Source: Thermoplasmata archaeon (GTDB taxonomy: Archaea; Thermoplasmatota; E2; JACPAO01; JAHFTW01). Taken from it: 57,133 nt of DNA. How positions within the stretch are numbered: the stretch's first letter is position 1; every line of letters begins with the position of its first letter. Below are positions 14,105-52,842 of this stretch, in pieces. The stretch is from contig JAXDQS010000007.1 in the NCBI GenBank assembly GCA_034667725.1, forward strand, positions 1 to 57,133, written 5' to 3'. Below the pieces are notes generated by a model. That model searched no databases. It worked only from the letters and a program-made list of their open reading frames with translations, and was not told the DNA's origin. The position numbers and the translations under genes are program-made.

Positions 14105-14493
14105 GCTACGCGGCAGGCTCGGCGCGCCCGGTCGGCGGCGGCCGCGGCGAGGTCTTCCTCTGGTACTACATGCGGCTCTCGGGGCTGCTCCTGGTCTTCC
14201 TGGCGTTCTTCCACCTCTGGCTGAACCACATCGAGACCGAGGTCGGCGCCCTCAGCTACGACCTGGTGATCGGCCGGCTCGGCAGCTTCCCCTGGCTGCG
14301 CGTCGTGGACTTCCTGCTCCTGTTCCTCGGCCTGTCGCACGGCGTCAACGGACTCAAGAACGTCATCGACGACCGCGTCCACGGGGCCCGTCAGCGCGCC
14401 TTGTGGCTGACCTTCCTGCTTGTGATGTTCGCCGTCTTCATGGTCGCCGGCACCGCGGTGCTGTTCGTGCTGCCCGCCTCGGGAGGCGCGTGA
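14101..14493 (+). CDS. sdhD: succinate dehydrogenase membrane anchor subunit
   Basis: MRLSG, HGVNGLKNVIDD; ATGA overlap with sdhC. Confidence 0.88.
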   Translation: MSYAAGSARPVGGGRGEVFLWYYMRLSGLLLVFLAFFHLWLNHIETEVGALSYDLVIGRLGSFPWLRVVDFLLLFLGLSHGVNGLKNVIDDRVHGARQRALWLTFLLVMFAVFMVAGTAVLFVLPASGGA

Positions 14494-14589
14494 ATGGCGT
14501 GCCACAAGTTGAGCCTCGTGGCCGAAGGACGCGAGGCCACAACGTCGTGCGGCGTCCAAGCCACCGCGAGCGAAGCGAGAGGTGCTTGA
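14494..14589 (+). repeat. 97-bp hairpin insertion duplicating the sdhD-stop/sdhA-start junction; reads as a 31-codon ORF
   Basis: GGAGGCGCGTGAATGGCGTGCCACAAGTT vs AGAGGTGCTTGACATGGCCTACCACAAGTT; contains GCGAGCGAAGCGAG. Confidence 0.65.
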
Positions 14590-14590
14590 C

Positions 14591-16345
14591 ATGGCCTACC
14601 ACAAGTTCGATGCCTTGGTCGTCGGCTCCGGCGGCGCCGGCCTGATGGCGGCCTACGAGCTGTCGAAGCACAAGGACCTCAACGTCGCCGTCATCACCAA
14701 GCTCTACCCGGTGCGCAGCCACACGGGTGCTGCCCAAGGCGGCATCTCGGCGGCCCTCGGCAACGTCAACGAGGACCACTGGGAGTGGCACGCCTACGAC
14801 ACGGTGAAGGGCTCCGACTTCCTGGGCGACCAGGACGCCATCGAGATCATGTGCCGCGACGCGCCGGAGACCATCATCCAGCTCGAGCATATGGGCCTCC
14901 CGTTCGACCGCCTCGAGAACGGCAAGATCTCCCAGCGCCGCTTCGGCGGCCACACCCGCGACCACGGCAAGGCCCCCGTCGAGCGCGCCTGCCACTCCGC
15001 CGACCGCACCGGGCACGCGATGCTGCACACCATGTACCAGCAGTGCCTCAAGAACGGCGTCCGCTTCTTCAACGAGTACCAGGTCGTGGACCTGGTCGAG
15101 GGCCGGGACGCCAAGGGCCGCAAGGCCGCCGCCGGCGTCGTGGCCTACCAGATCGAGACGGGCGAGCTGCACACCTTCCACGCCAAGGCGACCATGTTCG
15201 CCTCGGGTGGCTACGGCCGCGCCTGGAAGGTCACCTCGAACGCGCACGCGCTCACCGGCGACGCCATCGGCATCGCGATGCGGCACGGCATCCCGATCGA
15301 GGACGCCGAGTTCTACCAGTTCCACCCGACGGGCCTGTGGCGCATCGGCGTCCTTCTGTCCGAGGCCGTGCGCGGCGAGGGCGGCATCCTCCGGAACAAC
15401 ACCGGCGAGGCGTTCATGGCCCGCTACGCGCCCACCATGAAGGACCTCGCGAGCCGCGACGTCGTCAGCCGCGCCATCTACACCGAGATCCGCGAGGGCC
15501 GCGGCATCGGCCCCGTCGGCGACCAGTACGTCGTCTGCGACATCACCCACCTCAGCCCCGAGGTCATCGACAAGAAGCTGCCCGAGGTCACCGGCTTCGC
15601 CCGCACCTACCTCGGCATCGAGCCCAAGACCGAGCCCATCCCGGTCGCGCCGACGGCGCACTACGCCATGGGCGGCCTGCCCACCAACGTCGACACCGAG
15701 GTGCTCGCGGACGCCAAGGGCACGGTCGTCTCCGGCCTGTTCGCCGCCGGCGAGGTCGCCTGCGTGTCGGTCCACGGCGCCAACCGCCTCGGCACCAACT
15801 CGCTCTTGGACCTCGTGGTCTTCGGGCGCCGCGGCGGCCGCCGCATGGCCGAGTTCTGCGCCCTGGCCGACCACCTGCAACTGCCGCAGGCGCCCCAGGC
15901 CGCCGCCGAGGCGCAGGTCAAGGCCCTGCTCGCCAACAACGGCGGCGAGTCGGTGGCCCGCCTGCGCGACGAGATGCAGGTCGCGATGATGGACCTGTGC
16001 GGCGTGTACCGCACCGAGGAGTCGCTCACGAAGTGCAAGGGCATCCTCCAGACCCTGCGCGCCCGCTACCGCAACGTCAAGGTCAGCGACAAGGGCCGCC
16101 TGTTCAACACCGAGCTGCTGGAGGCGCTGGAACTGGGTTACCTGCTGGACATCAGCCTCGCCGTCGTCGAGTCGGCCATCGCCCGGCGCGAGTCGCGCGG
16201 CGGCCACGCCCGCGACGACTACTCCAAGCGCGACGACGCGCAGTGGCTGAAGCACACCTTCGCCACCTTGCAGGGCGACCAGGTCGTCCTCGACTACAAG
16301 CCCGTCACCATCACCCGGTACCAACCCGTGGAGCGTGTCTACTGA
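14591..16345 (+). CDS. sdhA: succinate dehydrogenase flavoprotein subunit
   Basis: GSGGAG, RSHTGAAQGG (covalent FAD His), QFHPTG, HYAMGG, HGANRLGTNSL. Confidence 0.97.
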   Translation: MAYHKFDALVVGSGGAGLMAAYELSKHKDLNVAVITKLYPVRSHTGAAQGGISAALGNVNEDHWEWHAYDTVKGSDFLGDQDAIEIMCRDAPETIIQLEHMGLPFDRLENGKISQRRFGGHTRDHGKAPVERACHSADRTGHAMLHTMYQQCLKNGVRFFNEYQVVDLVEGRDAKGRKAAAGVVAYQIETGELHTFHAKATMFASGGYGRAWKVTSNAHALTGDAIGIAMRHGIPIEDAEFYQFHPTGLWRIGVLLSEAVRGEGGILRNNTGEAFMARYAPTMKDLASRDVVSRAIYTEIREGRGIGPVGDQYVVCDITHLSPEVIDKKLPEVTGFARTYLGIEPKTEPIPVAPTAHYAMGGLPTNVDTEVLADAKGTVVSGLFAAGEVACVSVHGANRLGTNSLLDLVVFGRRGGRRMAEFCALADHLQLPQAPQAAAEAQVKALLANNGGESVARLRDEMQVAMMDLCGVYRTEESLTKCKGILQTLRARYRNVKVSDKGRLFNTELLEALELGYLLDISLAVVESAIARRESRGGHARDDYSKRDDAQWLKHTFATLQGDQVVLDYKPVTITRYQPVERVY

Positions 16346-17106
16346 TGCAGACCCAACTGGAGAAGCTCACCGTCACGCTGCGCGTGGCGCGCTACAACCC
16401 CGAGGCCGGCGACAAGCGCGCCCGCTTCGAGGAGTACCGCCTCAACGACTGCACCCCGATGGACCGCGTCCTCGACCTGCTGATCCGCATCAAGGGCGAG
16501 CAATCTGGCTCGCTGGCCTACCGGCGCTCGTGCGCGCACGGCATCTGCGGCTCGGACGCGATGGTCATCAACGGCAAGAACCGCCTCGCCTGCAAGACCC
16601 TGGTGCGCGACCTCAGCGGCACCATCACCGTCGAGCCCCTCAAGGGCCTCCCGGTCAAGAAGGACCTCATCGTGGACATGGAGCCGTTCTTCAAGTCGTA
16701 CGAGTCGGTGATGCCGTACCAGGTCACCAAGCACGAGCCGAGCGGCAAGGAGCGCCTCCAAAGCCCCGCCGACCAGGCCAAGATCGACGACCAGTCGAAG
16801 TGCATCATGTGCGCCGCGTGCACCACCAGCTGCCCCAGCTTCTGGGCCAACGACCAGTTCGTCGGCCCCGCCGCCGTCGTGCAGGCCAGCCGCTTCCTGT
16901 TCGACACCCGCGACGAAGGCAACGCCGAGCGCCTCCAGGTCCTCAACGACTACACCGGCGTCTGGCGCTGCCGCACCATCTTCAACTGCGTCGAGGCGTG
17001 CCCCCAAGGCATCGACATCACGCGCCACATTGGCAACGTCAAGAAGGCGCTCTTGTACGGCAACACCTCGTTCCTGCCGGACCTGCCGCCGCCTCCGTCC
17101 CATTAG
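16345..17106 (+). CDS. sdhB: succinate dehydrogenase iron-sulfur subunit
   Basis: SCAHGICGSD, CIMCAACTTSCP, CRTIFNCVEACP cysteine clusters; TGATG coupling. Confidence 0.96.
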   Translation: MQTQLEKLTVTLRVARYNPEAGDKRARFEEYRLNDCTPMDRVLDLLIRIKGEQSGSLAYRRSCAHGICGSDAMVINGKNRLACKTLVRDLSGTITVEPLKGLPVKKDLIVDMEPFFKSYESVMPYQVTKHEPSGKERLQSPADQAKIDDQSKCIMCAACTTSCPSFWANDQFVGPAAVVQASRFLFDTRDEGNAERLQVLNDYTGVWRCRTIFNCVEACPQGIDITRHIGNVKKALLYGNTSFLPDLPPPPSH

Positions 17107-17170
17107 GCACGCAGGTTGAAAGCGCAGCCTCCCTTGCCCGGCAGGCCGGCGCGACCGGCACGTGAACCCC

Positions 17171-17641
17171 ATGGCTGCCCGCAAGTCCGCAAAGAAGGCC
17201 AAGCCCGCCAAGTCCGCCAAAGCCGCGAAGCCCGTCCGCAAGGCCGCGCCCAAGAAGGCGGCGGTGCAGGCCACGCGCAAGATCCGCCCTGGCTTCATCT
17301 CGCACACCGAGTTGGTAAGCTCCGACCCGGCCGCCACGAAGGCCTGGGCCGCCGCGACCTTCGGCTGGGACATCTCGTCGATGCCGATGCCGGGCGGCAG
17401 CCCGTACCATATGTGGCGGTTCAACGAAGGCCAAGGCGGCGGCATCCGCGCCAACAACCCGCCCGAGGCGCCCGGCACGATTGCCTACGTCGAGGTCCCC
17501 GACATCAAGGCCGGCTTCGCCAAGGCCCTCAAGGGCGGCGCCCGGGAGATGCTCGCGCCCATGGCCATCCCTGGCGGCGGCTGGATGGCCATCGTCCAGG
17601 CTCCGGGCGGGCCGGCCGTTGGCCTGTGGGGCACGAAGTAG
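17171..17641 (+). CDS. VOC/glyoxalase family protein with Lys/Ala-rich N-tail
   Basis: SHTEL...FGW...GGGI...YVEVPDI...GG...PGGGWMA...PGG; paralog at 45614-46027. Confidence 0.85.
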   Translation: MAARKSAKKAKPAKSAKAAKPVRKAAPKKAAVQATRKIRPGFISHTELVSSDPAATKAWAAATFGWDISSMPMPGGSPYHMWRFNEGQGGGIRANNPPEAPGTIAYVEVPDIKAGFAKALKGGAREMLAPMAIPGGGWMAIVQAPGGPAVGLWGTK

Positions 17642-17663
17642 GTCAGGCGTCCTCGGCCAGCCC

Positions 17664-17763
17664 GCCTTGCGCCCCTTCCGCACCTCATAGACGACGTAGG
17701 GCGCTCCTGCACGGCAACACTTCGTTCTTGCCGGACCTGCCGCCCCCGCCGCCGTCGCATTAG
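17664..17763. repeat. orphan copies of the dedA 3' region (17664-17700) and sdhB 3' end (17701-17763)
   Basis: 37 nt identical to 18090-18126; 63 nt similar to 17047-17106, encoding ALLHGNTSFLPDLPPPPPSH*. Confidence 0.9.
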
Positions 17764-17777
17764 GCGTCCGCGAATCG

Positions 17778-18071
17778 CCGACTGGACACAGATTCCACAG
17801 AGTTCTGAGGGAATCTTCCGAATCTGTGCGAATCAGTGCTCGTCGCGGGCCGGCGACTGGACACAGATTCCACAGAGTTCTGTGGGAATCTTCCGAATCT
17901 GAGGGAATCAGTGCTCGTCGCGGGGCCGCCGACTGGACGCAGATTCCACAGAGTTCTGTGGGAATCTTCCGAATCTGAGGGAATCAGTGCCCGTCGCGGG
18001 CCGCCGACTGGACACAGGTTCCGCAGAGTTCTGTGGGAATCTTCCGAATCTGAGGGAATCAGTGCCCGTCG
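17778..18071. repeat. four tandem ~75-bp palindromic units (REP-like)
   Basis: GACTGG at 17780, 17855, 17931, 18006; consensus cgactggacacagattccacagagttctgtgggaatcttccgaatctgagggaatcagtgcccgtcg. Confidence 0.93.
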
Positions 18072-18709
18072 AGCGCCGCCGCCTTGCGTGCCTTGCGCCC
18101 CTTCCGCACCTCATAGACGACGTAGGCCACTAGGAGCACCAGCAGCACCACGCCGACCAGGTCGAGGTAAGGCTTGGCGGCGTCGATGGCGGCTTGGCCG
18201 TAGCGGTAGCCCAGCCAGAACAGGAACATGTTCCAGATCGTGGCGCCGACGGCGGTGGCGGCCAGGAACGGCCCCAGCGGCATCCGGGCCGCGCCGGCGG
18301 GCATACTCGAGACATGGCGCACGCCCGGAATGAAGCGGCACAGGAACACCGCCCAGACGCCGCGGCGCGCGAAGAACGCGTGCGCCTTGGCGACGTGGTG
18401 CGGCTGCACGAAGACGTAGCGGCCGTAGCGCTCCACCAGCGGCAGCAGGCCATGCTTGCCCATGAGGTAGCCGAGCCACGAGCCCAAGAGCGAGCCCGCC
18501 GTCGAGGCCAACAACACGCCGAGGACGGACATCTCGCCGCGCGCCGCCGCCAGCCCCGCGAACGGCATGACGGCCTCGCTCGGCACCGGGAACACCATGC
18601 TCTCGGCGGCCATGAGCAGGAACACGCCCCACAGGCCGGTGGCCGCGAGGACCGCCTGCGCCGTCTCGGTCAGCCAGTGCAGGAGGTCGCCGACGACGCC
18701 CACGCCCAA
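18059..18709 (-). CDS. dedA: DedA family membrane protein
   Basis: ESMVFPVPSE, RFIPGVRH, AGAARM motifs. Confidence 0.9.
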   Translation of the reverse strand: MGVGVVGDLLHWLTETAQAVLAATGLWGVFLLMAAESMVFPVPSEAVMPFAGLAAARGEMSVLGVLLASTAGSLLGSWLGYLMGKHGLLPLVERYGRYVFVQPHHVAKAHAFFARRGVWAVFLCRFIPGVRHVSSMPAGAARMPLGPFLAATAVGATIWNMFLFWLGYRYGQAAIDAAKPYLDLVGVVLLVLLVAYVVYEVRKGRKARKAAALDGH

Positions 18710-18725
18710 GGGAGCGGCGCGGGCG

Positions 18726-19301
18726 CTAAAGCCCTGTGGACGCCGCCACCCATAGCAGCCGCAGCGCGAACACCAGCAGCAGGTCGGCGCTCAACACCTC
18801 CAGCATGGGCGTGAACCATGGCCACCGCAGGGCGCCGCGCTCGACCAGCCACGCGAAGCCGGCGACCCAGGCGAAGATGCCGCCGAGGAAGCCGACGATG
18901 CCCCACGCGCCCTGGTCGGCGAGGAAGGTCGGGCCCGCCGACAGCCACCACGCCAGCTGGAACGGGTTGGTGAGGCTGAGGGCGAGGACCGCCGTGAAGC
19001 TGCGCGGCGGCGAGGTGGCCCCTTCCCGGACGCGCACCGTCGCCCACGCCAGGTAGGCCATCAGCACGGCGCCCGCGCCGGCCATCCACGGCAGCGCCGC
19101 CGTGAGGTCCACCACCTGCGGCAGCCCGAACAGCACGAGGGCGAGGTACACGGTGTCCACGACCGGCGCCGCGAGGCCGGCGGTGAAGCCGCGCCGCCAA
19201 CCGTGCGCGGCCGTCTGCTGCGCGATCAGCGTGTTGATGGGCCCCGGCGGGGCGGCCAGCGACAGCCCGATGGCCAGGCCGGCGGCCAGCTCCAGCAGCA
19301 T
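18726..19301 (-). CDS. LysE family translocator
   Basis: GLSLAAPPGP, LTNPF...WW motifs. Confidence 0.85.
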   Translation of the reverse strand: MLLELAAGLAIGLSLAAPPGPINTLIAQQTAAHGWRRGFTAGLAAPVVDTVYLALVLFGLPQVVDLTAALPWMAGAGAVLMAYLAWATVRVREGATSPPRSFTAVLALSLTNPFQLAWWLSAGPTFLADQGAWGIVGFLGGIFAWVAGFAWLVERGALRWPWFTPMLEVLSADLLLVFALRLLWVAASTGL

Positions 19302-19859
19302 TCAGTAATGGTAGTCGCGCTCGGTCTCGCCCTCGAGCTCGACCCCGAGGCCCAGGCTGAGGCGGTTTGCGAAGTTGAAGTAGGAGACGATCTCGGCGGT
19401 CTGGAGGATCTGCTCGTCCGTGAAGCCGCGGCTGCGGAGCGCCTGCACGGCCTCCTTGCTGCCCTTGCCCGGCGTCTTGGTGAGCGCGACGGCGAAGTGG
19501 ACCAGCGCGGCCTCGCGCTCGTTGAGCTTGGCCTTGGTCGGGTCGGTGGCGACCGAGCGCACCCAGGCGGGGTCCTTGGCGTAGCGGTCGAGCGCCTCGG
19601 CGTGGTGGGTCGTGCAGTAGGCGTCGCCGTTGGTGGCGGACACGACGACGGCCAAGAGCTCGGCCTCGCGGCGCGACAGGCCGCCCTTGCCGAACACGGT
19701 CGCCATGTAGAGGTCGAGGTGGGCGCGCAGGCTCTTGGGGTTCAGGCTCTGGATGCGCAGGATGTTCGAGACCCGGCCGCGGTTGCGCTGGATTTCGTCG
19801 TAGACCTCGAACAGCTTGCCGTCCGCCTCGTCTTCGGTCACGTGCCGAATGTGCGCCAC
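19302..19859 (-). CDS. peroxidase-related AhpD/CMD family enzyme
   Basis: LSRREAELLAVVVSATNGDAYCTTHH, YFNFANR; single Cys (DxxC). Confidence 0.85.
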   Translation of the reverse strand: MAHIRHVTEDEADGKLFEVYDEIQRNRGRVSNILRIQSLNPKSLRAHLDLYMATVFGKGGLSRREAELLAVVVSATNGDAYCTTHHAEALDRYAKDPAWVRSVATDPTKAKLNEREAALVHFAVALTKTPGKGSKEAVQALRSRGFTDEQILQTAEIVSYFNFANRLSLGLGVELEGETERDYHY

Positions 19860-19909
19860 GCCCCGGCAAAGCCGCCCGTCCCTTAAAGGAGGCGGGGCGC
19901 TGCCAGGGC

Positions 19910-20587
19910 ATGGAGACCTGCCCGCCGACGGCCGCCGTCGCCGACGCCTTGGCCCGCCTCGGCCTTCCCGTGCGCGCCCTCGGCCTCCGGCCCGCCTTGC
20001 CCGGCGCCGCGGTGGCCGGCCGCGTCCTGCCCGCCCGCCACGCCGGCTCGGTGGACGTCTTCCTGGAGGCGCTCCAGGCCGCCGCCCCCGGCGACATCTT
20101 GGTCGTCGACAACGCCGGCCGGCTGGACGAGGGCTGCGTCGGCGACCTCACCGCCCTGGAGGCGCGCCACCGCGGCGCCGCCGGTCTCGTCGTCTGGGGC
20201 GCGCACCGCGACCAGCGCGAATTGGCGGGCATGGGGTTCCCGGTCTGGAGCCTGGGCGCCTGCCCGAACGGCCCGCTCGAGTTGCGCCCGCGCGCCGCCG
20301 ACGCCTTGCAGGCCGCACGGCTGGGCCCGCATCAAGCCACCCGCGCCGACGTGGCCGTCGCGGACGACGACGGCGTCGTGCTGGTCCCGGCCGCCCGCTG
20401 GCCCGAGGTGCAGCAGGCCGCCGACGCCGTCGTGCGCACCGAGCGCGCGCAGGCGGAGCGCGTGCGCGGCGGCACCGGCCTCGCCGAGCAGCTCGACCTC
20501 AAGGGCTACCTCGCGGCGCGGGCCAAGGAGCCGACCGCCACGTTCCGCGACCACCTCAAGCGGCGCGGCGGCGCCATCGAGGCCTAG
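19910..20587 (+). CDS. RraA family protein (HMG/CHA aldolase-like)
   Basis: PGDILVVD, CVGDL, GAHRD, ADDDGVV motifs. Confidence 0.85.
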   Translation: METCPPTAAVADALARLGLPVRALGLRPALPGAAVAGRVLPARHAGSVDVFLEALQAAAPGDILVVDNAGRLDEGCVGDLTALEARHRGAAGLVVWGAHRDQRELAGMGFPVWSLGACPNGPLELRPRAADALQAARLGPHQATRADVAVADDDGVVLVPAARWPEVQQAADAVVRTERAQAERVRGGTGLAEQLDLKGYLAARAKEPTATFRDHLKRRGGAIEA

Positions 20588-21207
20588 CGCCTGGACTGCC
20601 AGAGCACCCGCGCCGCCACCGAGCAGTAGGGCGACCACGCCGGCCCTTGCTCGCGCATGAAGGCGGCCGCGTCCTCGGGGGCCACCCCGTAGGTGTTGGC
20701 GACCGCGAGCCGCAGGCCCAGGTCCTCGGGCGCCAGCACGTCCGGGCGCTGGAGGTGGAACATGAGGAACATCTTGGCGGTCCACACGCCGATGCCCTTG
20801 ACGGCGACCAAGGAGTCGGCGACGGCGTCGTCGGCCATGGCGGAGAACGCGGCGAAGTCCACCTCCTTCGACTGGGTGCGCTGGGCGAGGTCCAGGATGT
20901 AGGCGGCCTTTGCGCGCGACAGCCCCGCCTGGCGAAGCTCCAGCGCGTCGCGGTTGAGGACGCGGCGCGGCGTCACCTTGCCCCCGAGCGTCTTCACGAG
21001 GTTGGCCGTGATGGTGCGGCCCGCCGCCAGCGAGACCTGCTGGTGGACGATCGAGGTCACGAGGGCCGCGAAGCCGTCGTCGCCCGGGATCGCCTGCTCG
21101 GCGGGCAACGGGTTGGCCTTCGACAGCCGGTGCATCACCGGGTCCGCCTTCTTCCAGTGGCGTTCGGCCTCGGGCTGGAGTGCGGACAGCGGCGCGGGGG
21201 CGGGCAC
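20584..21207 (-). CDS. alkA: DNA-3-methyladenine glycosylase II (AlkA family, HhH-GPD)
   Basis: IVHQQVS, GLSRAK, VKGIGVWTA HhH, DLGL, WSPY. Confidence 0.88.
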   Translation of the reverse strand: MPAPAPLSALQPEAERHWKKADPVMHRLSKANPLPAEQAIPGDDGFAALVTSIVHQQVSLAAGRTITANLVKTLGGKVTPRRVLNRDALELRQAGLSRAKAAYILDLAQRTQSKEVDFAAFSAMADDAVADSLVAVKGIGVWTAKMFLMFHLQRPDVLAPEDLGLRLAVANTYGVAPEDAAAFMREQGPAWSPYCSVAARVLWQSRR

Positions 21208-21286
21208 GCGGGCGCACCGGCCGGCCGTCTCAAGGTTTCCGCGTCGCGTCCGATGGCTTTATCGCGCGCGCCGGCGCCGCCTTGCC

Positions 21287-22691: not shown

Positions 22692-22801
22692 GCGTGGCCG
22701 AAGCCGCCGCCCGCCAAGTGCAGTCCGAGGAACACGGCGGCCGCCACGAGGGCCAGGATGCCGAACACCTTCACCCAGCGCGGCATCGGCGGGTCGTCCA
22801 C
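22688..22801 (-). CDS. small single-TM peptide coupled to the DUF2269-like gene
   Basis: VDDPPMPRWVKVFGILALVAAAVFLGLHLAGGGFGHA; ATGA overlap. Confidence 0.6.
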   Translation of the reverse strand: MDDPPMPRWVKVFGILALVAAAVFLGLHLAGGGFGHA

Positions 22802-23092: not shown

Positions 23093-23110
23093 CGAAACGG
23101 AACCGAGGGC

Positions 23111-25973: not shown

Positions 25974-27507
25974 CGGCTCCCTCCAGCTTGAACGGCAGCG
26001 CCTTCTCGCCCTGCACCGAGACCTCCATCATGATGCGCGCGACCTCGGCGGCGTCGAAGATGCCGCGGCGCACCATCTCCTCCAGGATCAAGGTGCGGCG
26101 GGCCAGCATGTCGTACACCTTGCGGGTGTCCTCCATGCCCAAGAGCGGCGCGATCTTCTTCTCCAGGATGTGGCTGTTGTTGAGACCCTGGAACCGCAGC
26201 GTGTCCTCGACCAGGTCGTGCGTGAACACCGGGATCGCGACCACGCCCTCGGGGGAGCTGCCGGCGATCTCGACGATCTTGGTGACGCGCCGGACGCGCC
26301 GGCCGTTGACCATGCGGGCCTCCTGGAACAGCGCCACGTTCAGGTTGTCGATGAAGGTCATGGGCACGCTCATGGGCGCCGCCCCCAGGCGCTGCACCAG
26401 TGTCGTGGCGTCGGTGGCGTGGAACGTCGCCAGGGTGGCGTGACCGGTCTGCATCGCCTGGAACGCCACCGCGCCCTCGGCGCCGCGGATCTCGCCCACG
26501 ACGATGTAGTCGGGGCGGCTGCGCAGGGCCGCGCGCAGCAGGTCGAACATCTTGACATGGCCCTCCGGGGGGCCGGTCTCGCGGGTCAGCAGGCGCTGCC
26601 AGATGCGGTGCGGCGGCCGGACCTCGGGCGTGTCCTCGGCGCTGTAGATCTTGCCGCGCGGGTCGATGAACGGCAGCATCGCGTTGAGGGTCGCGGTCTT
26701 GCCGCAGGCGGCCTCGCCGCACAGGAACATGCTCATGCCCTGCTGGAGGCAGATCCAGACGTAGGCGGCCGCCTCCGCCGAGATGGTGTTGAGCTGGATG
26801 AGGCGGGTGATGCTGAACGGCGCCTCCTTGCCGCGGCGCAGGCTGATGCTCGGGCCACGGCGCGACACATCCTCCGAGTAGACCAGGTTGAGGCGGCTGC
26901 CGTCGGGAAGCACTGCGTCCACGATGGGCGTCGAGTCGCTCACCGGGCGCCCCAGCCGCTCGCACAGCAGCCGGAGGAAGCGCACCAGGTCCACCGGGTC
27001 CTCGAAGCGGACGTTGGTGGGCATCATGCCGTGGATGGTGTGGATGACGTGCACCGCGTTGGTGCCCACGACGTGGATGTCCTCCAGGTGGATGTCGCGC
27101 AGCAGCGCGTCGATGGGGCCGTAGCCCGCCATGTCCTGCAGGACACGGTTCACGACGGGGTCGCTCGCGGGGTCCGCGCCCGGCCGCAGCGCCTGCACGA
27201 TGCCCAGCAGCGCCTCCTTCAGCGTGCCCTGGCGGGGCTGGTCGCCGCGCCGGGCCGCCTCGGCGCCGACCTCGGTGCGCAGCTTCTCGACCTCGACGAA
27301 GTCGTTGGGCCCGAGCTGCGGCTGCACCACATCGTAGCGCCAGAGGTTGTCGGCGCGCCGCAGGTGCGCCCACGCGCCGCCGCCCAACGGGTACACGACG
27401 TCCGGCGGGCCGCCGGGTTTGAGCTGGGCCGCGTCCGCGAGCACCAGCGGCGTGCTGCCGTCGGCGGCCACGCGGCGCAGGTGCGCCTGGAGGGTCGCGT
27501 CGCTCAT
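25954..27507 (-). CDS. arlI: archaellum ATPase ArlI, second copy
   Basis: PIVDAVLPDGSRLN, Walker A GEAACGKT, EDTPE, LRSRPDYIVVGEIRG, QTGH...TFHA. Confidence 0.88.
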   Translation of the reverse strand: MSDATLQAHLRRVAADGSTPLVLADAAQLKPGGPPDVVYPLGGGAWAHLRRADNLWRYDVVQPQLGPNDFVEVEKLRTEVGAEAARRGDQPRQGTLKEALLGIVQALRPGADPASDPVVNRVLQDMAGYGPIDALLRDIHLEDIHVVGTNAVHVIHTIHGMMPTNVRFEDPVDLVRFLRLLCERLGRPVSDSTPIVDAVLPDGSRLNLVYSEDVSRRGPSISLRRGKEAPFSITRLIQLNTISAEAAAYVWICLQQGMSMFLCGEAACGKTATLNAMLPFIDPRGKIYSAEDTPEVRPPHRIWQRLLTRETGPPEGHVKMFDLLRAALRSRPDYIVVGEIRGAEGAVAFQAMQTGHATLATFHATDATTLVQRLGAAPMSVPMTFIDNLNVALFQEARMVNGRRVRRVTKIVEIAGSSPEGVVAIPVFTHDLVEDTLRFQGLNNSHILEKKIAPLLGMEDTRKVYDMLARRTLILEEMVRRGIFDAAEVARIMMEVSVQGEKALPFKLEGAGEAGHH

Positions 27508-27654
27508 GCCTTCGGCCTCCGGCGGGCCGCCTCGATGGCGTCGAGCGTCACCTGGTCATCGAACGCGGCCAGGCCGGGCCGGCCGGCCCAAGCCATTCCG
27601 TTCACGTCTTCGGCCTCCGGCGGGCCGCCTCGATGGCGTCGAGCGTCACCTGGT
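27504..27654 (-). repeat. 47-bp direct duplication of the arlI-1 3' end around a hairpin spacer; 30-aa bridging ORF 27504-27596
   Basis: 27510-27556 identical to 27608-27654; ORF MAWAGRPGLAAFDDQVTLDAIEAARRRPKA* overlaps the arlI-2 ATG (ATGA). Confidence 0.85.
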
Positions 27655-44385: not shown

Positions 44386-44498
44386 ACGGCCCCCACCCGG
44401 GTGCCCCGCGTGAACCTCCCCATTGCGGCAGGCCGCGCCGCCGAGGCTCGTCCCTCAAGGCTTGTGGGCGGGCCGAGCGTTTCCTGCGAGCGACCGCC

Positions 44499-45215: not shown

Positions 45216-45590
45216 TCACTTCTGGGCGGCCTGGTGGCCCTTCGCGGTCTTCCGGACCTTCAGGCGGGGCAGCCCATCCAGGACCTTGTGCAGCGGCGTG
45301 CTCTTGGCGAAGCCGAAGGTGGCCGCGCGATGCTTGGTCGGGATGCGCTCCCCCAAGGCCTGGACGGCGACCCAGCCCTCGTCGTGCTGGCCGGCGCTAA
45401 TGGCGGCATCCAACGCCCCCAGGACGATGGCCTGGAAACCGTCGGCGTCTTTGGATGGAGCTTTGCCGGGCGGGTCGATCAGCTCGACATGGCCGCCTTG
45501 CCGCCGCAGCCGGCTGGCCAACGGCTGGAAGTCGGAGTCGCCCGACACGATGCAGAACGCCCGGTAGCCCGCGCCGTGCAGGAGGTCCAT
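45216..45590 (-). pseudogene. N-terminally truncated NYN-domain (PIN-like) / OST-HTH gene
   Basis: AMDLLH...IVSGDSDFQPLA.RLR..G is the C-half of NYN; GWV...LG LOTUS-like tail; the N-terminal catalytic segment is missing and the VOC gene sits in its place. Confidence 0.65.
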
Positions 45591-45613
45591 CGCCCGGACC
45601 TGCCCACGGCGGC

Positions 45614-46027
45614 TTACTTCGGCGCCCAGAACCCGACCGGCACGCCGCCGGGGGCCTTGACGACGGCGATCCAGCCCATGCCGCCGGGAACCTGGTCGGG
45701 CGGCATCATCTCGGTGGCGCCCGCCTTGATGGCCTTGGCGTAGGCGGCCTTGATGTCCGGGACCTCGCAGTAGGGCGTCGAGCCGCCGGGCTCGCCCTTG
45801 TTGGTGTTGCGGATGCCGCCGCCGACGTTGTCGCCGAAGCTCCACATGTGGTAGTCGCCGGCCGGGGTCGGCATCGACGGCATGAAGCTCCAGCCGAGCG
45901 CCTGTTCGCACCACTTGCGGGTCGCGGCGGGGTCGCTGCTGGCCAGTTCCGTGTGCGACACGAAGCCCGGACGAATCTTGCGGTCGGAGGGCGTCGATAC
46001 CTGGGGTTGGGTGGTGTTGGAGGCCAT
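45614..46027 (-). CDS. VOC/glyoxalase family protein, paralog of 17171-17641
   Basis: RKIRPGF.SHTEL.SSDPAAT and EVPDIKA shared with the first copy. Confidence 0.88.
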   Translation of the reverse strand: MASNTTQPQVSTPSDRKIRPGFVSHTELASSDPAATRKWCEQALGWSFMPSMPTPAGDYHMWSFGDNVGGGIRNTNKGEPGGSTPYCEVPDIKAAYAKAIKAGATEMMPPDQVPGGMGWIAVVKAPGGVPVGFWAPK

Positions 46028-46179
46028 GCGCGATGCACCTGCCGGACCAGCCGGCAGCCAAGAACGCCGGGTGGCCTAGAGAAGGCCTTGCGGGGCGGCA
46101 ATGGAAGCTCGGGCGGCCTTCCAGGAAAGCAAGCGCCAGCACCGCAACGGTTTTTCCAGGAGGACGCAACCCCCCGTCC

Positions 46180-47058
46180 ATGCGTGGCGGCTTCCGCACC
46201 CTCGTCCTGTTCGGCGTGCTCACCGTGCTCATGATGGGCGCGGGCTGGGTGGCCTCGGGCTACGGCCTCGTCTCCGGCGACCCCTGGACGGCGACGTTGA
46301 TCTTCGCGGTGCTCGCGGGCGCCCTGAACTTCATCATGTACTTCGCGAGCCACAAGTTCGTCCTCTGGTCCTACAAGGCCAAGGTCGTGACGGCCGCGGA
46401 CGAGCCCCGCCTGCACCGCATCGTCGCCAAGGTCGCCGCCAAGGCCGGCCTCCCCATGCCGACCGTCGCCGTCATCCCGATGGACGTCCCCAACGCCTTC
46501 GCCACCGGACCCAGCCCCAAGAAGGCCGTCGTCGCCGCCACCCGCGGCATCATGGCCATGCTGGACGACGACGAGCTGGAAGGCGTCATGGCCCACGAGA
46601 TCGGCCACGTCCGCAACCGCGACATGCTCATCATGACGGTGGCCGCCACCGTCGCCGGCGCCATCACCTTCGCCGCCCGCATGCTGTTCTGGAACGCGCT
46701 GTTCGGCGGCAACGGCAACAACCGCAACCCGCTCTCCATCGTCGTCGGCATCCTGTTCATGATCCTCGCCCCCGTCGCGGCCCTCGTCGTGCAGCTCGCC
46801 ATCAGCCGCCGCCGCGAGTTCGAGGCCGACAAGGCCGGCGCCGAGATCTCCGGCAAGCCGCTCGCCCTCGCCTCCGCCCTGCGGAAGATGGAGCACTGGT
46901 CGCAGCGCGCGCCCCTCGACGACCGCGCCGCCCCCAGCGCCACCGCGAGCCTGTTCATCGTCAACCCGTTCAGCGGCAAGGGCATGGCGGCGATGTTCCG
47001 CACCCACCCGCGCACCGAGGACCGCATCGCGCGGCTCGAGAAGATGGCACAGGCCTGA
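46180..47058 (+). CDS. htpX: zinc metalloprotease HtpX (M48B)
   Basis: PNAFATG, HEIGH, ISRRREFEAD, LASALRK, THP...RI. Confidence 0.93.
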   Translation: MRGGFRTLVLFGVLTVLMMGAGWVASGYGLVSGDPWTATLIFAVLAGALNFIMYFASHKFVLWSYKAKVVTAADEPRLHRIVAKVAAKAGLPMPTVAVIPMDVPNAFATGPSPKKAVVAATRGIMAMLDDDELEGVMAHEIGHVRNRDMLIMTVAATVAGAITFAARMLFWNALFGGNGNNRNPLSIVVGILFMILAPVAALVVQLAISRRREFEADKAGAEISGKPLALASALRKMEHWSQRAPLDDRAAPSATASLFIVNPFSGKGMAAMFRTHPRTEDRIARLEKMAQA

Positions 47059-47077
47059 CGGCGCTCGCCTCTTCTGC

Positions 47078-47130
47078 ACCACGGATTTCACGGAACGACG
47101 ACATTCCGTGGAATCCGTGCGATCCGTGGT
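47078..47130. repeat. palindromic element, CACGGA variant of the CACAGA family
   Basis: accacggatttcacggaa-N8-ttccgtggaatccgtgcgatccgtggt. Confidence 0.7.
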
Positions 47131-47204
47131 TGGGCACGCGGCAGCGTTGACCGCTCCATCCCCGGCCCCGCACGCCTTATGACGCCCCAGCCGACGCCCC
47201 GCGC

Positions 47205-49574
47205 GTGACGGCCTGGGGCCTGCCCGCCCGCCATCCCTGGGCGACCCTTGCCGTCGCGACCCTCCTCCTGGCGGGCGCCATCGCGGGCATCCCCCGCCTC
47301 CGGGCCCAGGTGGACTTCGTGGACACCGTGCCTGCCAGCGCCGACGTCGACGCCTACCGCGCCCTGCTGGACCGGCTGGAGGGCGTGCGCTTCGTGGCCG
47401 TCCACATGGCCGCCAAGGAGTCGTACCGCACCGACGCCGGCTTCGACGCCCTCGTGGCCGAGCAGCAGGACCTGACCGCGTTCCTCACCGGCACGATGCC
47501 GCCAGGAACGTTCAGCCACAGCCTGTCGGCCTACGAGGCGATGCGGCAGGGCAACTACATGCTCGCCAAGGTCGCCACCGCCGGCAACCCGCCCGCGTCC
47601 GCCTACGCCCTGCCCTCCAACGACGTGGCGTGGCGCTACGTCCGCGACGAAGTGCGCGGCGAGGCCGGCGCCGACGTGCTGGCCGCCGACGGGTCGAGCG
47701 CGCTGCTGCTGATGTTCCTGGCCACCAAGGACCCCGCCGAGGCCCGCTCGCTCGCAGGAGCCGCGGCCGGCGCCACCACCCTTTGGAGTGCTGCCAAGCC
47801 GCATCCCGCCACCACCGCCGCGCAAGCCTCCGGCCTCCTGGTCTCCAGCGGCTACGTCGACGACCGCAACCAAGAGGACCTGCGAATCTGGGGCCTCGCC
47901 TCAGGCATCGCCGTCGCGGTCGCCCTGCTGGCCGTCGTGCGCCGCCCCACCAACATCCTGCTGGCCACCCTGAGCCTGGCCGCCGCGACCCTCGCCACCT
48001 TCGGCGTCCTCGGCTGGCTGGGCACCCCCATCAGCTTCCTCACCGTGTTCCTGGCGCCCATGGTGACCGGCATCGGCATGGACTACGCGCTGCACATCCT
48101 CCACCGCCAAGACCAGCTCGTGGAGTCGGGCGCCCGCCCGCGCGCCGGCCTCGCCCAGGCGATGCGCGACGTCGGCCCCGCCACCCTCGCCGGCGCCGCC
48201 ACCACGGCCGCGGCACTCCTGGTGCTGGTGCTCGTGCCGGCGCCCCTGTTCGCCCAGGTCGGCGCCATCGGTGCCCTCGGCGTCGCGCTCGGCTTCCTCA
48301 CCAGCATCACGCTCGCGCCCGCCCTGCGCGCCGCCATCCCCATGCGGCAACCGCGCCCGCGCCGCGACCGCATCGGCCCCGCCGTCGGCGCCGTCGGCTC
48401 CTGGAGCCTGCGCCATCCCGCGACGGTGGCGACCCTGCTCGCCGTGCTCCTGGTGGGCGGCGCGGTGGCGGCATGGCAAGGCACCCGCCTGGAGTCGGGC
48501 AGCGCCGAGAACGAGTTCCCCGCCCACGACCCCGTCCTCCTGCTGCAAAAGCGCATCGAGAAGGAATACGGCGCCTTCCAGCGCGCCTACCTCATCGTGC
48601 AAGGCCCGCTCGCCGACGCCGACGCCCTCGCCGCCCTCGACCAGGCCGTCGCCAAGGCCGCCAGCCTGCCGCTGTTCCGCTCCGCCAGCGCCGTCACCAC
48701 CCTCCTGCGCGCCGACGCCGCCACCGACCAAGGCATCCTCGACATCGCCCGCGGCGCCGCCGGCATGGGCGACGGCCTCCCCGCCACCGACGCCGACGCC
48801 CGCGCCGCCCTCGACCGCCTGTTCGCCGACCCGCTCTGGCGCACCCTCGCCCCCTTCGTCGTCACCCGCGACGCCACCCTCGCCGTCGTCGCCATCCAGG
48901 TCGACCCGTGGGACTCCCAGACCCAGCTGTCGGAGCTCGACGCCGCCCTCCACGCCCAAGCCTCGGAGCTGCGCGGCGCCCTCGGCCCCGGCTACACCGT
49001 CCACGCCGCCGGCGCCCCCGTCAACCGCGCCGCCGTCCTCGACCAGACCCCCGCCGACGTCCGCCTCGCCACCTTCGGCGTCGCGGCCGTCGTCGTCGCC
49101 ACCCTCGCGCTCGCGTGGGCCCGCAGGCCCCGCGGCGTCGCGGTGGCGGTCGCGGCGGGCGGCATCGTGCTGGCGGCCGCGCTGTTGCTGGTCGCGACGG
49201 TGCCTGCGCTGGACGCCGCGTACCGCTGGTCCGGGACCGGCAACTCGGCCGCGCTCAACGACATGTTCCTGCTCGCGTTCGCCGTCACGGTGGGCGTCGG
49301 CGTCGACGGCTTCCTGCAGATGGCGCACCGCAACTGGGAGACCCGCGACCCGGCGCGAGCCATGCGCGAGACCGGCCGCGCCGTGTTCGGCACTTGGCTC
49401 ACGACGGTGGCCGCGTTCGCGCCGCTGGCCGGAGCGTACTTCTTGCAGACCAAGAACCTGGCCATCCTGATCGTGGCCGGCTCCGTGTACGCCTTCGTGC
49501 TCACGCTGCTGGCGGGGCCGTGGGTGATGCGGTGGGCGAATGGCGTCCATTCGCGCCGGGGGCCGCAAGCATGA
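47205..49574 (+). CDS. MMPL/RND family transporter
   Basis: Two-fold repeat with GIGMDYALH and GVGVDGFLQ; TTVAAFAPL. Confidence 0.85.
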   Translation: MTAWGLPARHPWATLAVATLLLAGAIAGIPRLRAQVDFVDTVPASADVDAYRALLDRLEGVRFVAVHMAAKESYRTDAGFDALVAEQQDLTAFLTGTMPPGTFSHSLSAYEAMRQGNYMLAKVATAGNPPASAYALPSNDVAWRYVRDEVRGEAGADVLAADGSSALLLMFLATKDPAEARSLAGAAAGATTLWSAAKPHPATTAAQASGLLVSSGYVDDRNQEDLRIWGLASGIAVAVALLAVVRRPTNILLATLSLAAATLATFGVLGWLGTPISFLTVFLAPMVTGIGMDYALHILHRQDQLVESGARPRAGLAQAMRDVGPATLAGAATTAAALLVLVLVPAPLFAQVGAIGALGVALGFLTSITLAPALRAAIPMRQPRPRRDRIGPAVGAVGSWSLRHPATVATLLAVLLVGGAVAAWQGTRLESGSAENEFPAHDPVLLLQKRIEKEYGAFQRAYLIVQGPLADADALAALDQAVAKAASLPLFRSASAVTTLLRADAATDQGILDIARGAAGMGDGLPATDADARAALDRLFADPLWRTLAPFVVTRDATLAVVAIQVDPWDSQTQLSELDAALHAQASELRGALGPGYTVHAAGAPVNRAAVLDQTPADVRLATFGVAAVVVATLALAWARRPRGVAVAVAAGGIVLAAALLLVATVPALDAAYRWSGTGNSAALNDMFLLAFAVTVGVGVDGFLQMAHRNWETRDPARAMRETGRAVFGTWLTTVAAFAPLAGAYFLQTKNLAILIVAGSVYAFVLTLLAGPWVMRWANGVHSRRGPQA

Positions 49575-49581
49575 TAATGAC

Positions 49582-50331
49582 TTGGGGAATCGGCTGGTTT
49601 GGTTGCACGGTCGGCTTGGCATCATTTTGGTCTGCGCTGCGTTGATGGTAGGCATTGGCGCAACGGTTTTTATCGTAAATTCGATGACCGATTGCGAGCG
49701 CTTTGAATGGACCATTGGCACTGGCGTGGACGACCAGGTCCGCATCGACCTCAACGGGGATTGGCGCCCGGGGCTGACGTCCAACGTCATGGCCATCCCA
49801 CGGAGTTGCCCGCTGGACGAAGCCCAGTTCCATTGGACGGTTCGAGGCCCAACGCCTCAGCAAGTGCGCCAGTTTGAAGGTGAATCCATCACGGTTCCGT
49901 GGGAGTCTCCTGGTGAGTACTTGATTGCCTTGACCGTGTCGAAGGCCTCAGGGGAACTTGCCTACTCTGGAACGGGGCCTGCTGCCTGGAGCTACGTCAG
50001 GGAGGCCACCATGGAAGCCACCAACTCGACCATGTCGCTTCGGATTCCCGTCACATGCTGTGCACGCTACTTGGATGTCGCATGGTTGAACGCTGCAAAC
50101 CTAGGCGCCAATGCGCGCTTTTCACTCTACGATGGCGCTGGCAAGCCGATTGTCACCGGTGCCAATGAAATCCACATCGGACAAACGTTCTCGTGGCCCA
50201 ACGACATCGTCTACGGCGACTTCCTGCTGCTGGTGGAGCAGGACGTGACGCCCGAGGCCAGGCTCGGCCTTGGCCAATCCCGCGACTTCGGGTTGCGGGT
50301 CCACTATTCTCCTGGATACACACAATGGTGA
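49582..50331 (+). CDS. membrane-anchored protein with PKD/Ig-like domain (lower-GC islet)
   Basis: N-terminal TM; FHW...GESITVPWESPGEYLIALTV PKD-like pattern; start uncertain. Confidence 0.55.
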   Translation: MGNRLVWLHGRLGIILVCAALMVGIGATVFIVNSMTDCERFEWTIGTGVDDQVRIDLNGDWRPGLTSNVMAIPRSCPLDEAQFHWTVRGPTPQQVRQFEGESITVPWESPGEYLIALTVSKASGELAYSGTGPAAWSYVREATMEATNSTMSLRIPVTCCARYLDVAWLNAANLGANARFSLYDGAGKPIVTGANEIHIGQTFSWPNDIVYGDFLLLVEQDVTPEARLGLGQSRDFGLRVHYSPGYTQW

Positions 50332-50335
50332 AACA

Positions 50336-51928
50336 ATGAACCAAACGACAAGGATAGTGGCTGTTGCGCTTTTGCTCGCAGCCGGCAGCCTGCCCACGTT
50401 CACGAACGCGGCCCCTCTCTGCACCGATGCCGTGGCGCTGCTGGCGCTGGCCGGGCAAACCTCGACGCTCGACGCCCAAGACTCGGACGGTGACCACATC
50501 AGTGACTACGCGGAGATGAATTACCTGAACACCAGTCCGTGCAATAGCAATTCCGACGGTGATTCTGTGCCAGATGGCATCGACGGCACGCCCAACGCCC
50601 AAGGCGTCAAGATTCCGTTCAACCTTGCAGTTCTGGCCATCAACCAAATCGAGTTGGACAATGAATGCGACGAGGGTTCCAATTGGGACCCTTACCTCAC
50701 GGCATGGAATGTCGAGGTCCGTCCGCTGTCGCTCAACAAACAGGTGTCCGCGCTCGATTGGACGGAGGGCGGGCACCAAGACAACCGCCCCAACGAGAAC
50801 ACCAATCCGACGCTGTTCACCAACGGGCAGGACGCCGCGGCAAGCGGAAACCTGCTCACGTTCCAGCTCGACCCGAACCTGGACATGTGGGGCCTGTTCA
50901 CGGGGGACGTTGGCGTCGGGCTGGCGGGCGGAGTGATGGCAGTTGACCATGATGACACGCGCCACGACCTGATGCCCTTCAATGTCGGGGAAATCAAAAT
51001 CATCCCCTCGGCGACCGGTGGGCCCACATCCGTCGTTTGGACATCGCAATTGGCTACAGACTCCGACACTCCGACGCCCTTCAAGTGCCGGACCCAGATA
51101 GTCATGGAGGCCAAGGTCAGTCTTCCGGCGGAGATTGAAGAGACCTTCGAAGCCCTCCAAGCCATTGGCCCCGACAACTTCGTCGACTGCGGCGATGAGA
51201 TCGACTGCACTTACCATGGCGGAAATCCGGGGTCCCCGATTCCCATCATCGGCGCTGCTCTTCCGTACTCCCCGGGCAGCAACATCTGCGACGACTCGCT
51301 GCTGCATACGCCTGCCGCCCTTGGAGCCCAGTTCAACGCCGCGGTGCCCGCGCCGAGCCAAGCCTTGGGCCAGTGCGAAGCACGCCCGGTCGATGGCGGG
51401 CATGAAGACCCCTTCCAGCCCGCCTTGTGCATGGACGGCAGCGTCGATGTGCTCCCACGCTACCGGTCATTCTACGCAAGCGCCCCGTCCGTCAGCATGG
51501 GAACCTATGTCGAATACCTGGTCAACCTGCGCGCGACCTACACTTTGGCGACGGCAGCCGGGCCACGGACGACGAGCTACGACTCCTGGTTCGACCTTGC
51601 CCACAAGCAGGGCGATCCGCAGGTTGGCTTCGCGGCGATGCCTGGCTGCTCGATTTCTGCTGTCCAAGTCACCGTGCAAGACATCCAGGTCAGGACCGCG
51701 ACCGGCACGCTGCATTCCATTGCAATCAAGAACGGCTGCCAAGCGCTCGCCTCAATGCCGGCAGTCTCGCTTCAAGGGCTGCAGTTTGCGTATGTCCTGC
51801 CCGAGATTCGGCTCGCAGCGGCGACCGGCCTCGTTGGCGAGAGTGGCGAATGCCTCATCGCCGACGACCCGATTGGCGGCCAGCTTGGAACCGCGGACGG
51901 CGCCGAGTTCTTCGCGGCGTTCGCCTGA
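50336..51928 (+). CDS. secreted Cys-rich protein with thrombospondin type 3-like Ca-binding repeats (lower-GC islet)
   Basis: GGTGA SD, signal peptide, DSDGDHISDYAE and NSDGDSVPDGID. Confidence 0.7.
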   Translation: MNQTTRIVAVALLLAAGSLPTFTNAAPLCTDAVALLALAGQTSTLDAQDSDGDHISDYAEMNYLNTSPCNSNSDGDSVPDGIDGTPNAQGVKIPFNLAVLAINQIELDNECDEGSNWDPYLTAWNVEVRPLSLNKQVSALDWTEGGHQDNRPNENTNPTLFTNGQDAAASGNLLTFQLDPNLDMWGLFTGDVGVGLAGGVMAVDHDDTRHDLMPFNVGEIKIIPSATGGPTSVVWTSQLATDSDTPTPFKCRTQIVMEAKVSLPAEIEETFEALQAIGPDNFVDCGDEIDCTYHGGNPGSPIPIIGAALPYSPGSNICDDSLLHTPAALGAQFNAAVPAPSQALGQCEARPVDGGHEDPFQPALCMDGSVDVLPRYRSFYASAPSVSMGTYVEYLVNLRATYTLATAAGPRTTSYDSWFDLAHKQGDPQVGFAAMPGCSISAVQVTVQDIQVRTATGTLHSIAIKNGCQALASMPAVSLQGLQFAYVLPEIRLAAATGLVGESGECLIADDPIGGQLGTADGAEFFAAFA

Positions 51929-52067
51929 GAGCAAGGACTTCCCTTATCCCCTCGTCCTTTGATTTTTGCCCGCGCTGACGCATGTTTGCCCTTGATGGGG
52001 TTTCCTTGCTGCACCCGGCTCGCTGAACTGACGAATCGATGATTTCAGCCGCGCCTTCGGCGCCGGC

Positions 52068-52362
52068 CTAGATGACCTGGACTTCGTCGATTTCCCCTTG
52101 CGGCCGATGCCCCTCCGATTCGCTGTCCTTCGCTGTCGCTCGGACCAGCTTCACGGTGCGGCGCGACCGCAAGGTCCGCTCGCCGTCGCTGCGCTCGGCT
52201 CGCTGAGATCGACGAAGGCCGCGCATCTGGGCGCTGCGAGCCTCAGATGACTTGCACCCCTTGCGGCCGCCCTGACGGTCGGCCGCAAAGGTCCGGCGCG
52301 GCCGCTTCGCGGCCTGCCTGTGCAAGTGCTCTGCCCTCGCCTTCGCTGCGCGCTCGGCTCGG
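52068..52362 (-). repeat. two related hairpin insertions downstream of nusA, each followed by a displaced copy of the nusA 3' end
   Basis: Copies at 52243-52257 (VQVI*) and 52068-52094 (EIDEVQVI*); both inserts share cccttgcggccg, ccgcaa(a)ggtccg and tcgctgcg(cg)ctcggctcg. Confidence 0.85.
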
Positions 52363-52842
52363 TCAGATCACTTGCACTTCGTCAATCTCGTGGTGCCGCT
52401 TCGCGATGTGGCGAATCGACGCGATGTTGCGGCCCTGCTTGCCGATGGCCTTGCCTTTGTCCTTCGCCTCGACCTCGACAATCGCCCTAATCTTGATCTT
52501 GGGCTCGGGCGCGGGAGCGTCGGGGTTGCTGGGGTCCGGGGGCGGGGTGAGCGCCAGGGACTCCATGCGGATGGAGGCGACGTCGAACGGCTTGAACAGG
52601 TTCCGGATGAAGACCTGCTTGTCGTCGTCCCATTCGACGAACTTGACGTCCTTCTTCAGAAGCTCGCGCATCATCTGGAGGTTCTTTGCCTCCTTGCCGA
52701 GGGCTTGGCCGAGGTGCCCTTTCTCGGTGATGAAGACGATGCGCTCGCCCTCGTCGACGGCGTCCTTGATGCGGGCGCGCAGGCGCTTCTCGGCCTCGGT
52801 GATGAGGCCGATGGTTTCCATGGAAAGGGAGAGGTCCGCCAT
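52363..52842 (-). CDS. nusA: archaeal NusA-like KH protein
   Basis: Two KH motifs (ALGKEAKN, AIGKQGRN); follows rpl30e. Confidence 0.92.
   Translation of the reverse strand: MADLSLSMETIGLITEAEKRLRARIKDAVDEGERIVFITEKGHLGQALGKEAKNLQMMRELLKKDVKFVEWDDDKQVFIRNLFKPFDVASIRMESLALTPPPDPSNPDAPAPEPKIKIRAIVEVEAKDKGKAIGKQGRNIASIRHIAKRHHEIDEVQVI

Follow-up and report, generated by a model that had tools for sequence, protein, structure and literature searches.

A family of miniature gene-end cassettes with antisense arms in uncultured Thermoplasmatota

In a 57,133-nt stretch of DNA from a Thermoplasmata archaeon (positions 1 to 57,133 of contig JAXDQS010000007.1, assembly GCA_034667725.1), which we refer to as the window, the archaeal nusA gene (52363..52842, minus strand), an intact gene with KH domains (Pfam PF13184), is followed by two short inserts, each of which ends in a further copy of the gene's own 3' terminus. 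The window is contig C7 of a source genome (G000) of 2.32 Mb and 71% GC, in which genes were called with a purpose-built Markov model; the nusA relatives of this genome come from uncultured Thermoplasmatota. An initial annotation of the window had described gene-end insertions at four loci, namely, those of sdhA, dedA, arlI-1 and nusA, and the direct duplication of a gene terminus is indeed present in the sequence at all four. Both nusA inserts are spanned with zero differences by a Logan contig from a public run that probably represents the source sample.

Read along the minus strand, the nusA inserts form two successive cassettes, each with its own antisense arm, as had been proposed. The live gene end of 15 nt (52363..52377) is followed by a spacer hairpin with a C-GCA-G loop (52334..52362) and by the antisense arm of cassette 1 (52320..52333, minus strand), which fits the live end at 13 of 14 positions and the last base of which pairs with the first base past the junction, that is, in register 15. 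The core of this cassette (52258..52319, minus strand) consists of an A, a hairpin (P2), the linker GGAC, a second hairpin (P3) and a terminal GG, and matches our covariance model of the core (R2) with E 5e-4. Next comes a displaced nusA end of 15 nt (52243..52257, minus strand), from which the live end differs silently and which forms part of the older cassette; the live end itself probably came with the newer one. Cassette 2 comprises, on the same strand, a spacer hairpin (52230-52242), an antisense arm in register 27 (52205-52229) and a core in which P3 is enlarged by additional internal sequence (52095..52204; E 1.7e-4), and the oldest displaced nusA end, of 27 nt (52068..52094), begins right after its GG. 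The 3' half of arm 2 (52205-52217) pairs, with one G.T, with nusA positions 27-15 nt before the end of the gene, so that a match between the older arm and the gene persists upstream of the newer junction; this single hint suggests that the left joint is precise as well. The nusA unit folds on the sense strand with a z of -6.8, and the pair provides the only matches to the core model within the window.

The same architecture recurs far beyond the window. Among 32 assembled genomes of one uncultured Thermoplasmatota family (completeness 65-94%), the covariance model yields about 190 matches in 29 genomes, with 10-11 in the source genome; there are none in six genomes from sister families of the order, and a 150-genome sample of the phylum gave no match beyond the family. 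The order of parts is constant: replacement gene end, spacer hairpin, antisense arm, A, P2, GGAC, P3, GG and displaced old end, with a cassette of about 90-150 nt, a core of about 50-60 nt and an arm of 6-25 nt. The spacer hairpin behind the gene end carries a C-GNA-G loop, and P2 often has tandem G.A pairs. Orthologous nusA ends show this anatomy across many genera, and plain ends in others. In 11 aligned cores, two-sided changes occur in 17 of 19 pairs and 92% of the positions are paired, a level reached by 0 of 500 shuffles and not by slid controls (at most 48%), although the structure was read from the same sequences, so that the check leans in its favour. A shared scaffold across the genome, as predicted in the initial annotation, thus exists for the nusA-type family, and its stems covary. 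There are more than 20 distinct targets, all conserved genes or tRNAs: secY, S7, TFB, FtsZ, Spt5, a PUA-domain gene, biotin carrier and aldehyde dehydrogenase were confirmed with Pfam, and EF-2, thermosome, P-stalk protein, ATPase D, acyl-CoA dehydrogenase, thiolase and several tRNAs were recognised by sequence. Successive units form tandem arrays at some sites, and near-identical cores (0.87-0.89) are found at different targets in different genomes. The family of miniature gene-end cassettes is therefore real and apparently undescribed: Rfam holds no match to it, and a literature search, in which coverage of subscription journals was thin, found no account of this anatomy.

Several variants of this anatomy were observed as well. 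Tandem arrays at nusA and secY (L091:2880-3330 and source genome C8:7330-7850) contain, in alternation with the standard core, cores that end in GC or GAGC instead of GG. Where cassettes lie antisense to a tRNA, as some do (L338, L344, L169), the tRNA end comes from the 3' strand of P3 instead. In a sister family (L021:1830-1960), the nusA end is duplicated with a short antisense stretch and a different core.

The differences between the two copies of a gene end bear directly on their origin. Among 23 coding cases in a good state of preservation, synonymous codon differences between the copies number 67 and all others 9, a synonymous fraction of 0.88, whereas duplication followed by decay would give 0.31 with a maximum of 0.43; hence both copies were coding, in different lineages. 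Judged from these sequences, the gene ends appear to have arrived horizontally and not by duplication and decay, and the cassette would import its own gene end and push that of the host behind the GG. In 11 of the 23 cases the first mismatch lies no more than 4 nt from the junction, which makes the right joint independent of homology. These data bear on the possibility, raised in the initial annotation, that independent template switches (direct-inverted-direct) or tandem duplications followed by decay explain all such inserts. Template switching, or an exchange of alleles joined at microhomology, suffices to explain arlI-1 and the sdhB/dedA locus described below; for the nusA family it is refuted, given that it can yield neither a shared covarying core nor such an excess of synonymous differences, and as a general account we regard it as scarcely credible. 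Empty and filled sites coexist at orthologous loci, as had been anticipated: in the nusA tree, registers 15, 21, 24 and 27 interleave with empty sites, and the last three of these registers occur together in a single well-supported clade with three members. Repeated, site-specific arrival from other lineages is, in our view, very likely.

The junction itself obeys a simple rule. In the flanks of 107 elements, the conserved A is preceded by C in 88 and the GG is followed by G in 82; cassettes insert into the sense strand at N^G within a conserved gene or tRNA, 4-70 nt short of its end. No conserved bases were found 5' of the insertion site, and the duplication begins at the junction, the identity between upstream and downstream copies being at background before it and at 0.5-0.8 right after the GG. 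Because identity 5' of the site is at background, we rejected the idea that P3 acts as a guide by reading that stretch. The six bases before the conserved A and the six after the GG pair at 0.66 in register, compared with 0.34-0.48 when slid and a maximum of 0.51 in 500 shuffles. The register of the arm and the start of the copy, called independently, agree exactly in 25 of 48 elements and 16 of 24 targets, and several of the mismatches are tandem arrays in which the copy matched another unit. Moreover, nusA has been entered 15, 21, 24 or 27 nt before its end, with a matching arm each time. We relied on these register tests because a duplex-energy test has low sensitivity in DNA of 71% GC and misses even the nusA arms (p 0.49 and 0.91).

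Several features suggest that the structure that matters is one of DNA. The loop of P2 is C-GNA-G in 57 cases and that of P3 C-TT-G in 31; UUCG loops were not found among the cassettes, and GNRA loops are rare. Mini-hairpins of the GCGNAGC type are extraordinarily stable in DNA, the tested RNA counterpart is far less stable, and such hairpins have been found at single-strand priming sites (PMC13037366). The sense strand of the cassette folds better than the opposite strand, with a mismatch bias of 52 G.T versus 6 A.C in the arm stem and 50 versus 9 in P3. A folded single DNA strand is therefore the likely substrate. An alternative is that recombination has spread an RNA-based retro-element, or else a 3' RNA structure that serves the host as a terminator or stabiliser; folding of the sense strand directly behind stop codons and tRNAs and the G.T bias are compatible with RNA, but GNA triloops combined with the scarcity of RNA-type loops, the lack of an Rfam match, the presence of reverse transcriptase in only 1 of the 32 genomes and the units antisense to tRNAs are not what this explanation predicts, and a regulatory role leaves the displaced gene ends unexplained. 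We consider it highly improbable.

The reading that we favour, and hold to be rather probable, is that the nusA inserts belong to a family of mobile cassettes that carry no genes and in which the arm fixes the position of the cut and a protein is supplied in trans. We can propose only tentatively that the arm guides targeting by base pairing, and we are equally guarded about the system that this would imply, namely, a retargetable, DNA-guided insertion in which a core of roughly 60 nt with an antisense arm in cis enters pairable sites by strand transfer and homes between species. The cassette would travel between lineages as folded single-stranded DNA, and the protein, having recognised a three-way junction made of the arm helix, P2 and P3, would use strand transfer to link the GG to the target at N^G. 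Where the cut falls would depend on the arm, which would base-pair immediately 3' of it in the donor and probably also in the target; a change of arm would accordingly bring a change of target. Thereafter the gene would finish in the incoming end, and the old end of the host would be left directly after the GG. Joining of the left end could conceivably form part of the same reaction, with a circle as the intermediate, or else proceed by homologous recombination in the body of the gene.

Several observations, concerning the arm, the sampling and the enzyme, weigh against mobile cassettes aimed by their arms. Where a base of the arm discriminates between the copies, it favours the upstream copy over the displaced downstream one by 30:0, a preference that is partly circular given that the upstream start was chosen by arm pairing. 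Because arms fit their own upstream copy better, pairing with the target would need to tolerate many mismatches. Cores cluster more by target than by genome (25 versus 8 of 65 nearest neighbours), so that retargeting must be rare. The genomes of the family are kindred, and counts across them lack independence. Empty sites can also be created by repeat-mediated deletion (PMC3119063), so that some of those seen may be losses. Neither an excised circle nor an empty allele of the same strain was seen in contigs from the public run, and movement is thus unobserved. As for the enzyme, Y1 HUH transposase (PF01797) was found in none of the 32 family genomes, the positive control being matched in 6 of 14; reverse transcriptase is limited to the single genome mentioned above, IS110 (PF02371) is absent from the source genome and present in 2 of 32, as against 29 of 32 for the core, and Cas1 was found in 0 of 5 genomes. 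No open reading frame lies inside the core, and no recombinase recurs in about 150 flanks.

Part of this evidence would also fit a similarly mobile cassette in which the arm is merely structural, making the carried end double-stranded in the manner of attC, while homology and host recombination choose the target. That the arm follows the cassette's own copy, that its pairing with the displaced host end falls from 0.83 to about 0.5 within 5 nt, that cores group by target and that no dedicated enzyme was found all agree with such a scheme. By contrast, hardly any identity is required at the right joint, no more than 3-4 nt being common to the target and some of the tRNA-targeted units, and this joint lies exactly after the GG, unlike those of ordinary homologous recombination. 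On balance we regard a purely structural arm as unlikely, albeit the most serious competitor of arm-directed cutting.

Further searches for an enzyme have likewise returned little. Y2 transposase (IS91/ISCR) was found in 0 of 5 genomes, the positive control being likewise without a match. The source genome holds no fitting four-helix-bundle gene and no nuclease gene flanked by such hairpins, and half-core pattern hits revealed no gene-bearing version. The enzymes suggested in the initial annotation (HUH/RAYT, IS110, reverse transcriptase, four-helix bundle) are accordingly absent or rare. An HNH gene lies behind secY in a few genomes (source genome C8:4024-4548; L378-L397); it occurs as a single copy in 25 of the 32 family genomes, almost invariably with one particular membrane-protein gene, ClC-like by eye, downstream of it, and has a short conserved motif in front; and, adjoining secY in about 5 of 20 loci, it was set aside as a weak lead only. 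A 527-aa orphan without a Pfam hit (source genome C10:77432-79015) was rejected as the cassette enzyme when it turned out, by its Atlas features (0.96), to be a DDE transposase. A lone tyrosine recombinase lies near a tRNA at C10:27011-28180 of the source genome, the sole integrase of which is located away from the cassettes. Since the assembled genomes are incomplete, the enzyme could come from a plasmid or virus passing through.

The cassettes could, alternatively, be remnants of larger integrative elements, viral or plasmid, that restored the 3' end from attP and have since lost their genes. Integration of this kind typically leaves attL and attR marked by a substituted gene terminus that differs silently from the old one, it classically takes place at tRNAs and at the ends of conserved genes, and such elements are often missing from metagenome-assembled genomes. 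But a single core of 50-60 nt at more than 20 unrelated targets, with several registers per gene, would require as many integrase specificities, and no long version was found in about 150 flanks, nor any core among 80 pattern hits in viral contigs. We deem this origin improbable.

The three remaining loci of the window, those of sdhA, dedA and arlI-1, are separate duplications outside the nusA cassette family. The 97-nt insert before sdhA (14494..14590, plus strand) contains a 15/17 copy of the sdhA start, a short fold-back and a tandem-GA hairpin, and has no core match; the fold-back is short and bulged (fold z -1.1, duplex p 0.56), and the sdhD|sdhA site is empty in 14 of 14 relatives. It is possibly a decayed cousin of the nusA cassettes. 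At dedA there is a double duplication on the plus strand (17043..17764) of the sdhB end (17046-17090 ~ 17700-17744) and the dedA end (17664-17700 = 18090-18126), which bracket an extra gene (17171-17641) for a 156-aa product with a Lys/Ala-rich N-terminus and no Pfam match; the locus looks as if a few bases of microhomology had served to join two alleles. It is followed by four 75-nt units of a dispersed tandem repeat (17776..18071, strand unassigned) that lies outside the nusA cassette family and has 163 BLAST hits in the source genome; no inverted copy of the target was found in the dedA insert (p 0.67). The GxxExxY lead of the initial annotation fared only in part: a GxxExxY gene (PF13366; source genome C5:135000-135892) is flanked by the 75-nt repeat, being followed by tandem hairpin repeats like those at dedA, and this repeat lies outside the nusA core family. 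At arlI-1 (27504..27654, minus strand), the gene end is duplicated, with 47 nt identical, around a short GC spacer with no core and no clear arm; the downstream copy is the ancestral end, which overlaps the start of the next gene, the inverted matches are GC palindromes only (p 0.04-0.23; fold z -1.3), and the site is empty in the two closest orthologues. The names arlI and dedA are putative, and the arlI genes scan in Pfam as T2SSE ATPases. The sdhA and arlI-1 inserts can be read as short open reading frames, as described. Given the weakness of the duplex test, it is mainly the core model, folding and direct inspection that carry the arm-negative verdict on these three loci. That an inverted copy of its own target is present in each insert is thus not confirmed, the nusA arms alone being upheld, and the gene-less family with a scaffold and a target-complementary arm comprises the nusA pair and its about 190 relatives, to the exclusion of sdhA, dedA and arlI-1.

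Scanning of the whole source genome led to a similar partition. Duplications of 3' gene ends within 420 nt (score >=16) number 26, as against 1.3 expected from swapped controls, so that the predicted excess holds for direct copies of 3' ends, but neither for 5' ends (2 versus 2.0) nor for inverted copies of gene ends (14 versus 12.7); because inverted copies are not enriched, the fold-back arm is not general to gene-end duplications. The 3' duplications involve several unrelated spacer families. Two other families, each ending in a GGGG-C(GNA)G-CCCC hairpin and without a detectable arm, lie between duplicated gene ends, one at C10:211380, C10:68696, C10:432012, C3:174677, C4:18606 and C5:82723, the other at C10:110826, C10:224459, C2:110109, C3:515560 and C9:801. 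Silent differences likewise prevail (39 versus 11) between the copies of 20 duplications in this genome, most of which do not belong to the nusA-type family. At C2:63836, C10:395054 and C1:69602, duplicated gene ends are accompanied by target-matching arms and other cores; at C2:63836 there are two successive arms, each fitting the copy immediately before it. Long-range 3' duplications were considered as cargo and rejected, being tandem paralogues or chance matches.

On the features tested, the cassettes lie outside the IS200 elements and PATEs, REP/RAYT, IS110, integron cassettes and retro-elements, and because no tested family fits we count them as a new class, even if a known type of enzyme may drive them after all. 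In IS110 systems, a bridge or seek RNA combines a constant scaffold with variable, target-complementary segments; the cassette arm acts, if at all, in cis, the loops are of the DNA type and the target end is duplicated, and the distribution of IS110 differs from that of the core. Such systems express a guide RNA with target- and donor-binding loops; contigs from an RNA run gave no coverage of the cassette inserts. In integrons, attC is a gene-less site, found in arrays, of which the folded single strand is the recombination substrate, whereas the cassettes have no RYYYAAC/GTTRRRY cores, no cargo and no attI, and the junction reads GG|G followed by variable bases. Retro-elements (target-primed reverse transcription) and casposons differ in that the two copies would be identical at insertion, which the 88% synonymous divergence contradicts, in addition to the rarity of reverse transcriptase and the lack of Cas1 in the five genomes scanned. 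REP elements and REPINs are short hairpin elements behind genes that are thought to be mobilised in trans by RAYT (PMC3333891, PMC6006769). The cassettes resemble them in the position of short hairpins behind genes and in a conserved tetranucleotide at the hairpin foot. In REP elements the guide tetranucleotides are GTAG or GGAG; the cassette linker is GGAC, and the cassettes further differ in insertion inside the coding end with its replacement, in low copy number, in target-specific arms and in the absence of Y1.

With the IS200/IS605 family, and IS608 in particular, the cassettes share strand-specific, imperfect hairpins, as seen in the G.T bias and sense-strand folding; IS608 chooses its target by DNA-DNA pairing, which for the cassette arm is our proposal. 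The related PATEs are gene-less and lack inverted repeats, with palindromes near their termini (PMC3119063). Unlike these elements, which have a fixed 4-5-nt target and no duplication, the cassettes have no conserved 5' bases, duplicate the gene end and carry a spare one, and no Y1 transposase accompanies them. The pairing of IS608 has been extended by engineering to targets of 12-17 nt (PMC5934647). Its natural guide has 4 nt, and in the engineered version pairing takes place upstream of the cut, whereas the cassette arm, of 6-25 nt, is target-specific and pairs on the 3' side of the junction. Should the arm be a guide, the cassettes would be a natural counterpart of the engineered long-guide IS608, with one core re-aimed at more than 20 conserved sites, and would point to a new, programmable integration chemistry; such DNA-guided cassettes would home between species into conserved gene ends without harm. 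On the weaker reading they would still be undescribed homing parasites that swap the last codons of nusA, secY, EF-2, FtsZ and TFB for those of other lineages, and the core model together with the junction rule makes the hunt for the enzyme concrete. Integrative elements that restore a gene from attP leave a live end upstream and a dead end downstream, with silent differences between them, at conserved targets and in tandem arrays. The cassettes, when compared with this pattern, showed the same replacement end upstream and displaced end downstream, and they differ in their size of about 100 nt, in the lack of an integrase, in the use of one core at so many targets and in an arm set in the register of the junction. 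By analogy, then, the cassettes would seem to function most like IS608, on the one hand, and attP-restoring integrative elements, on the other.

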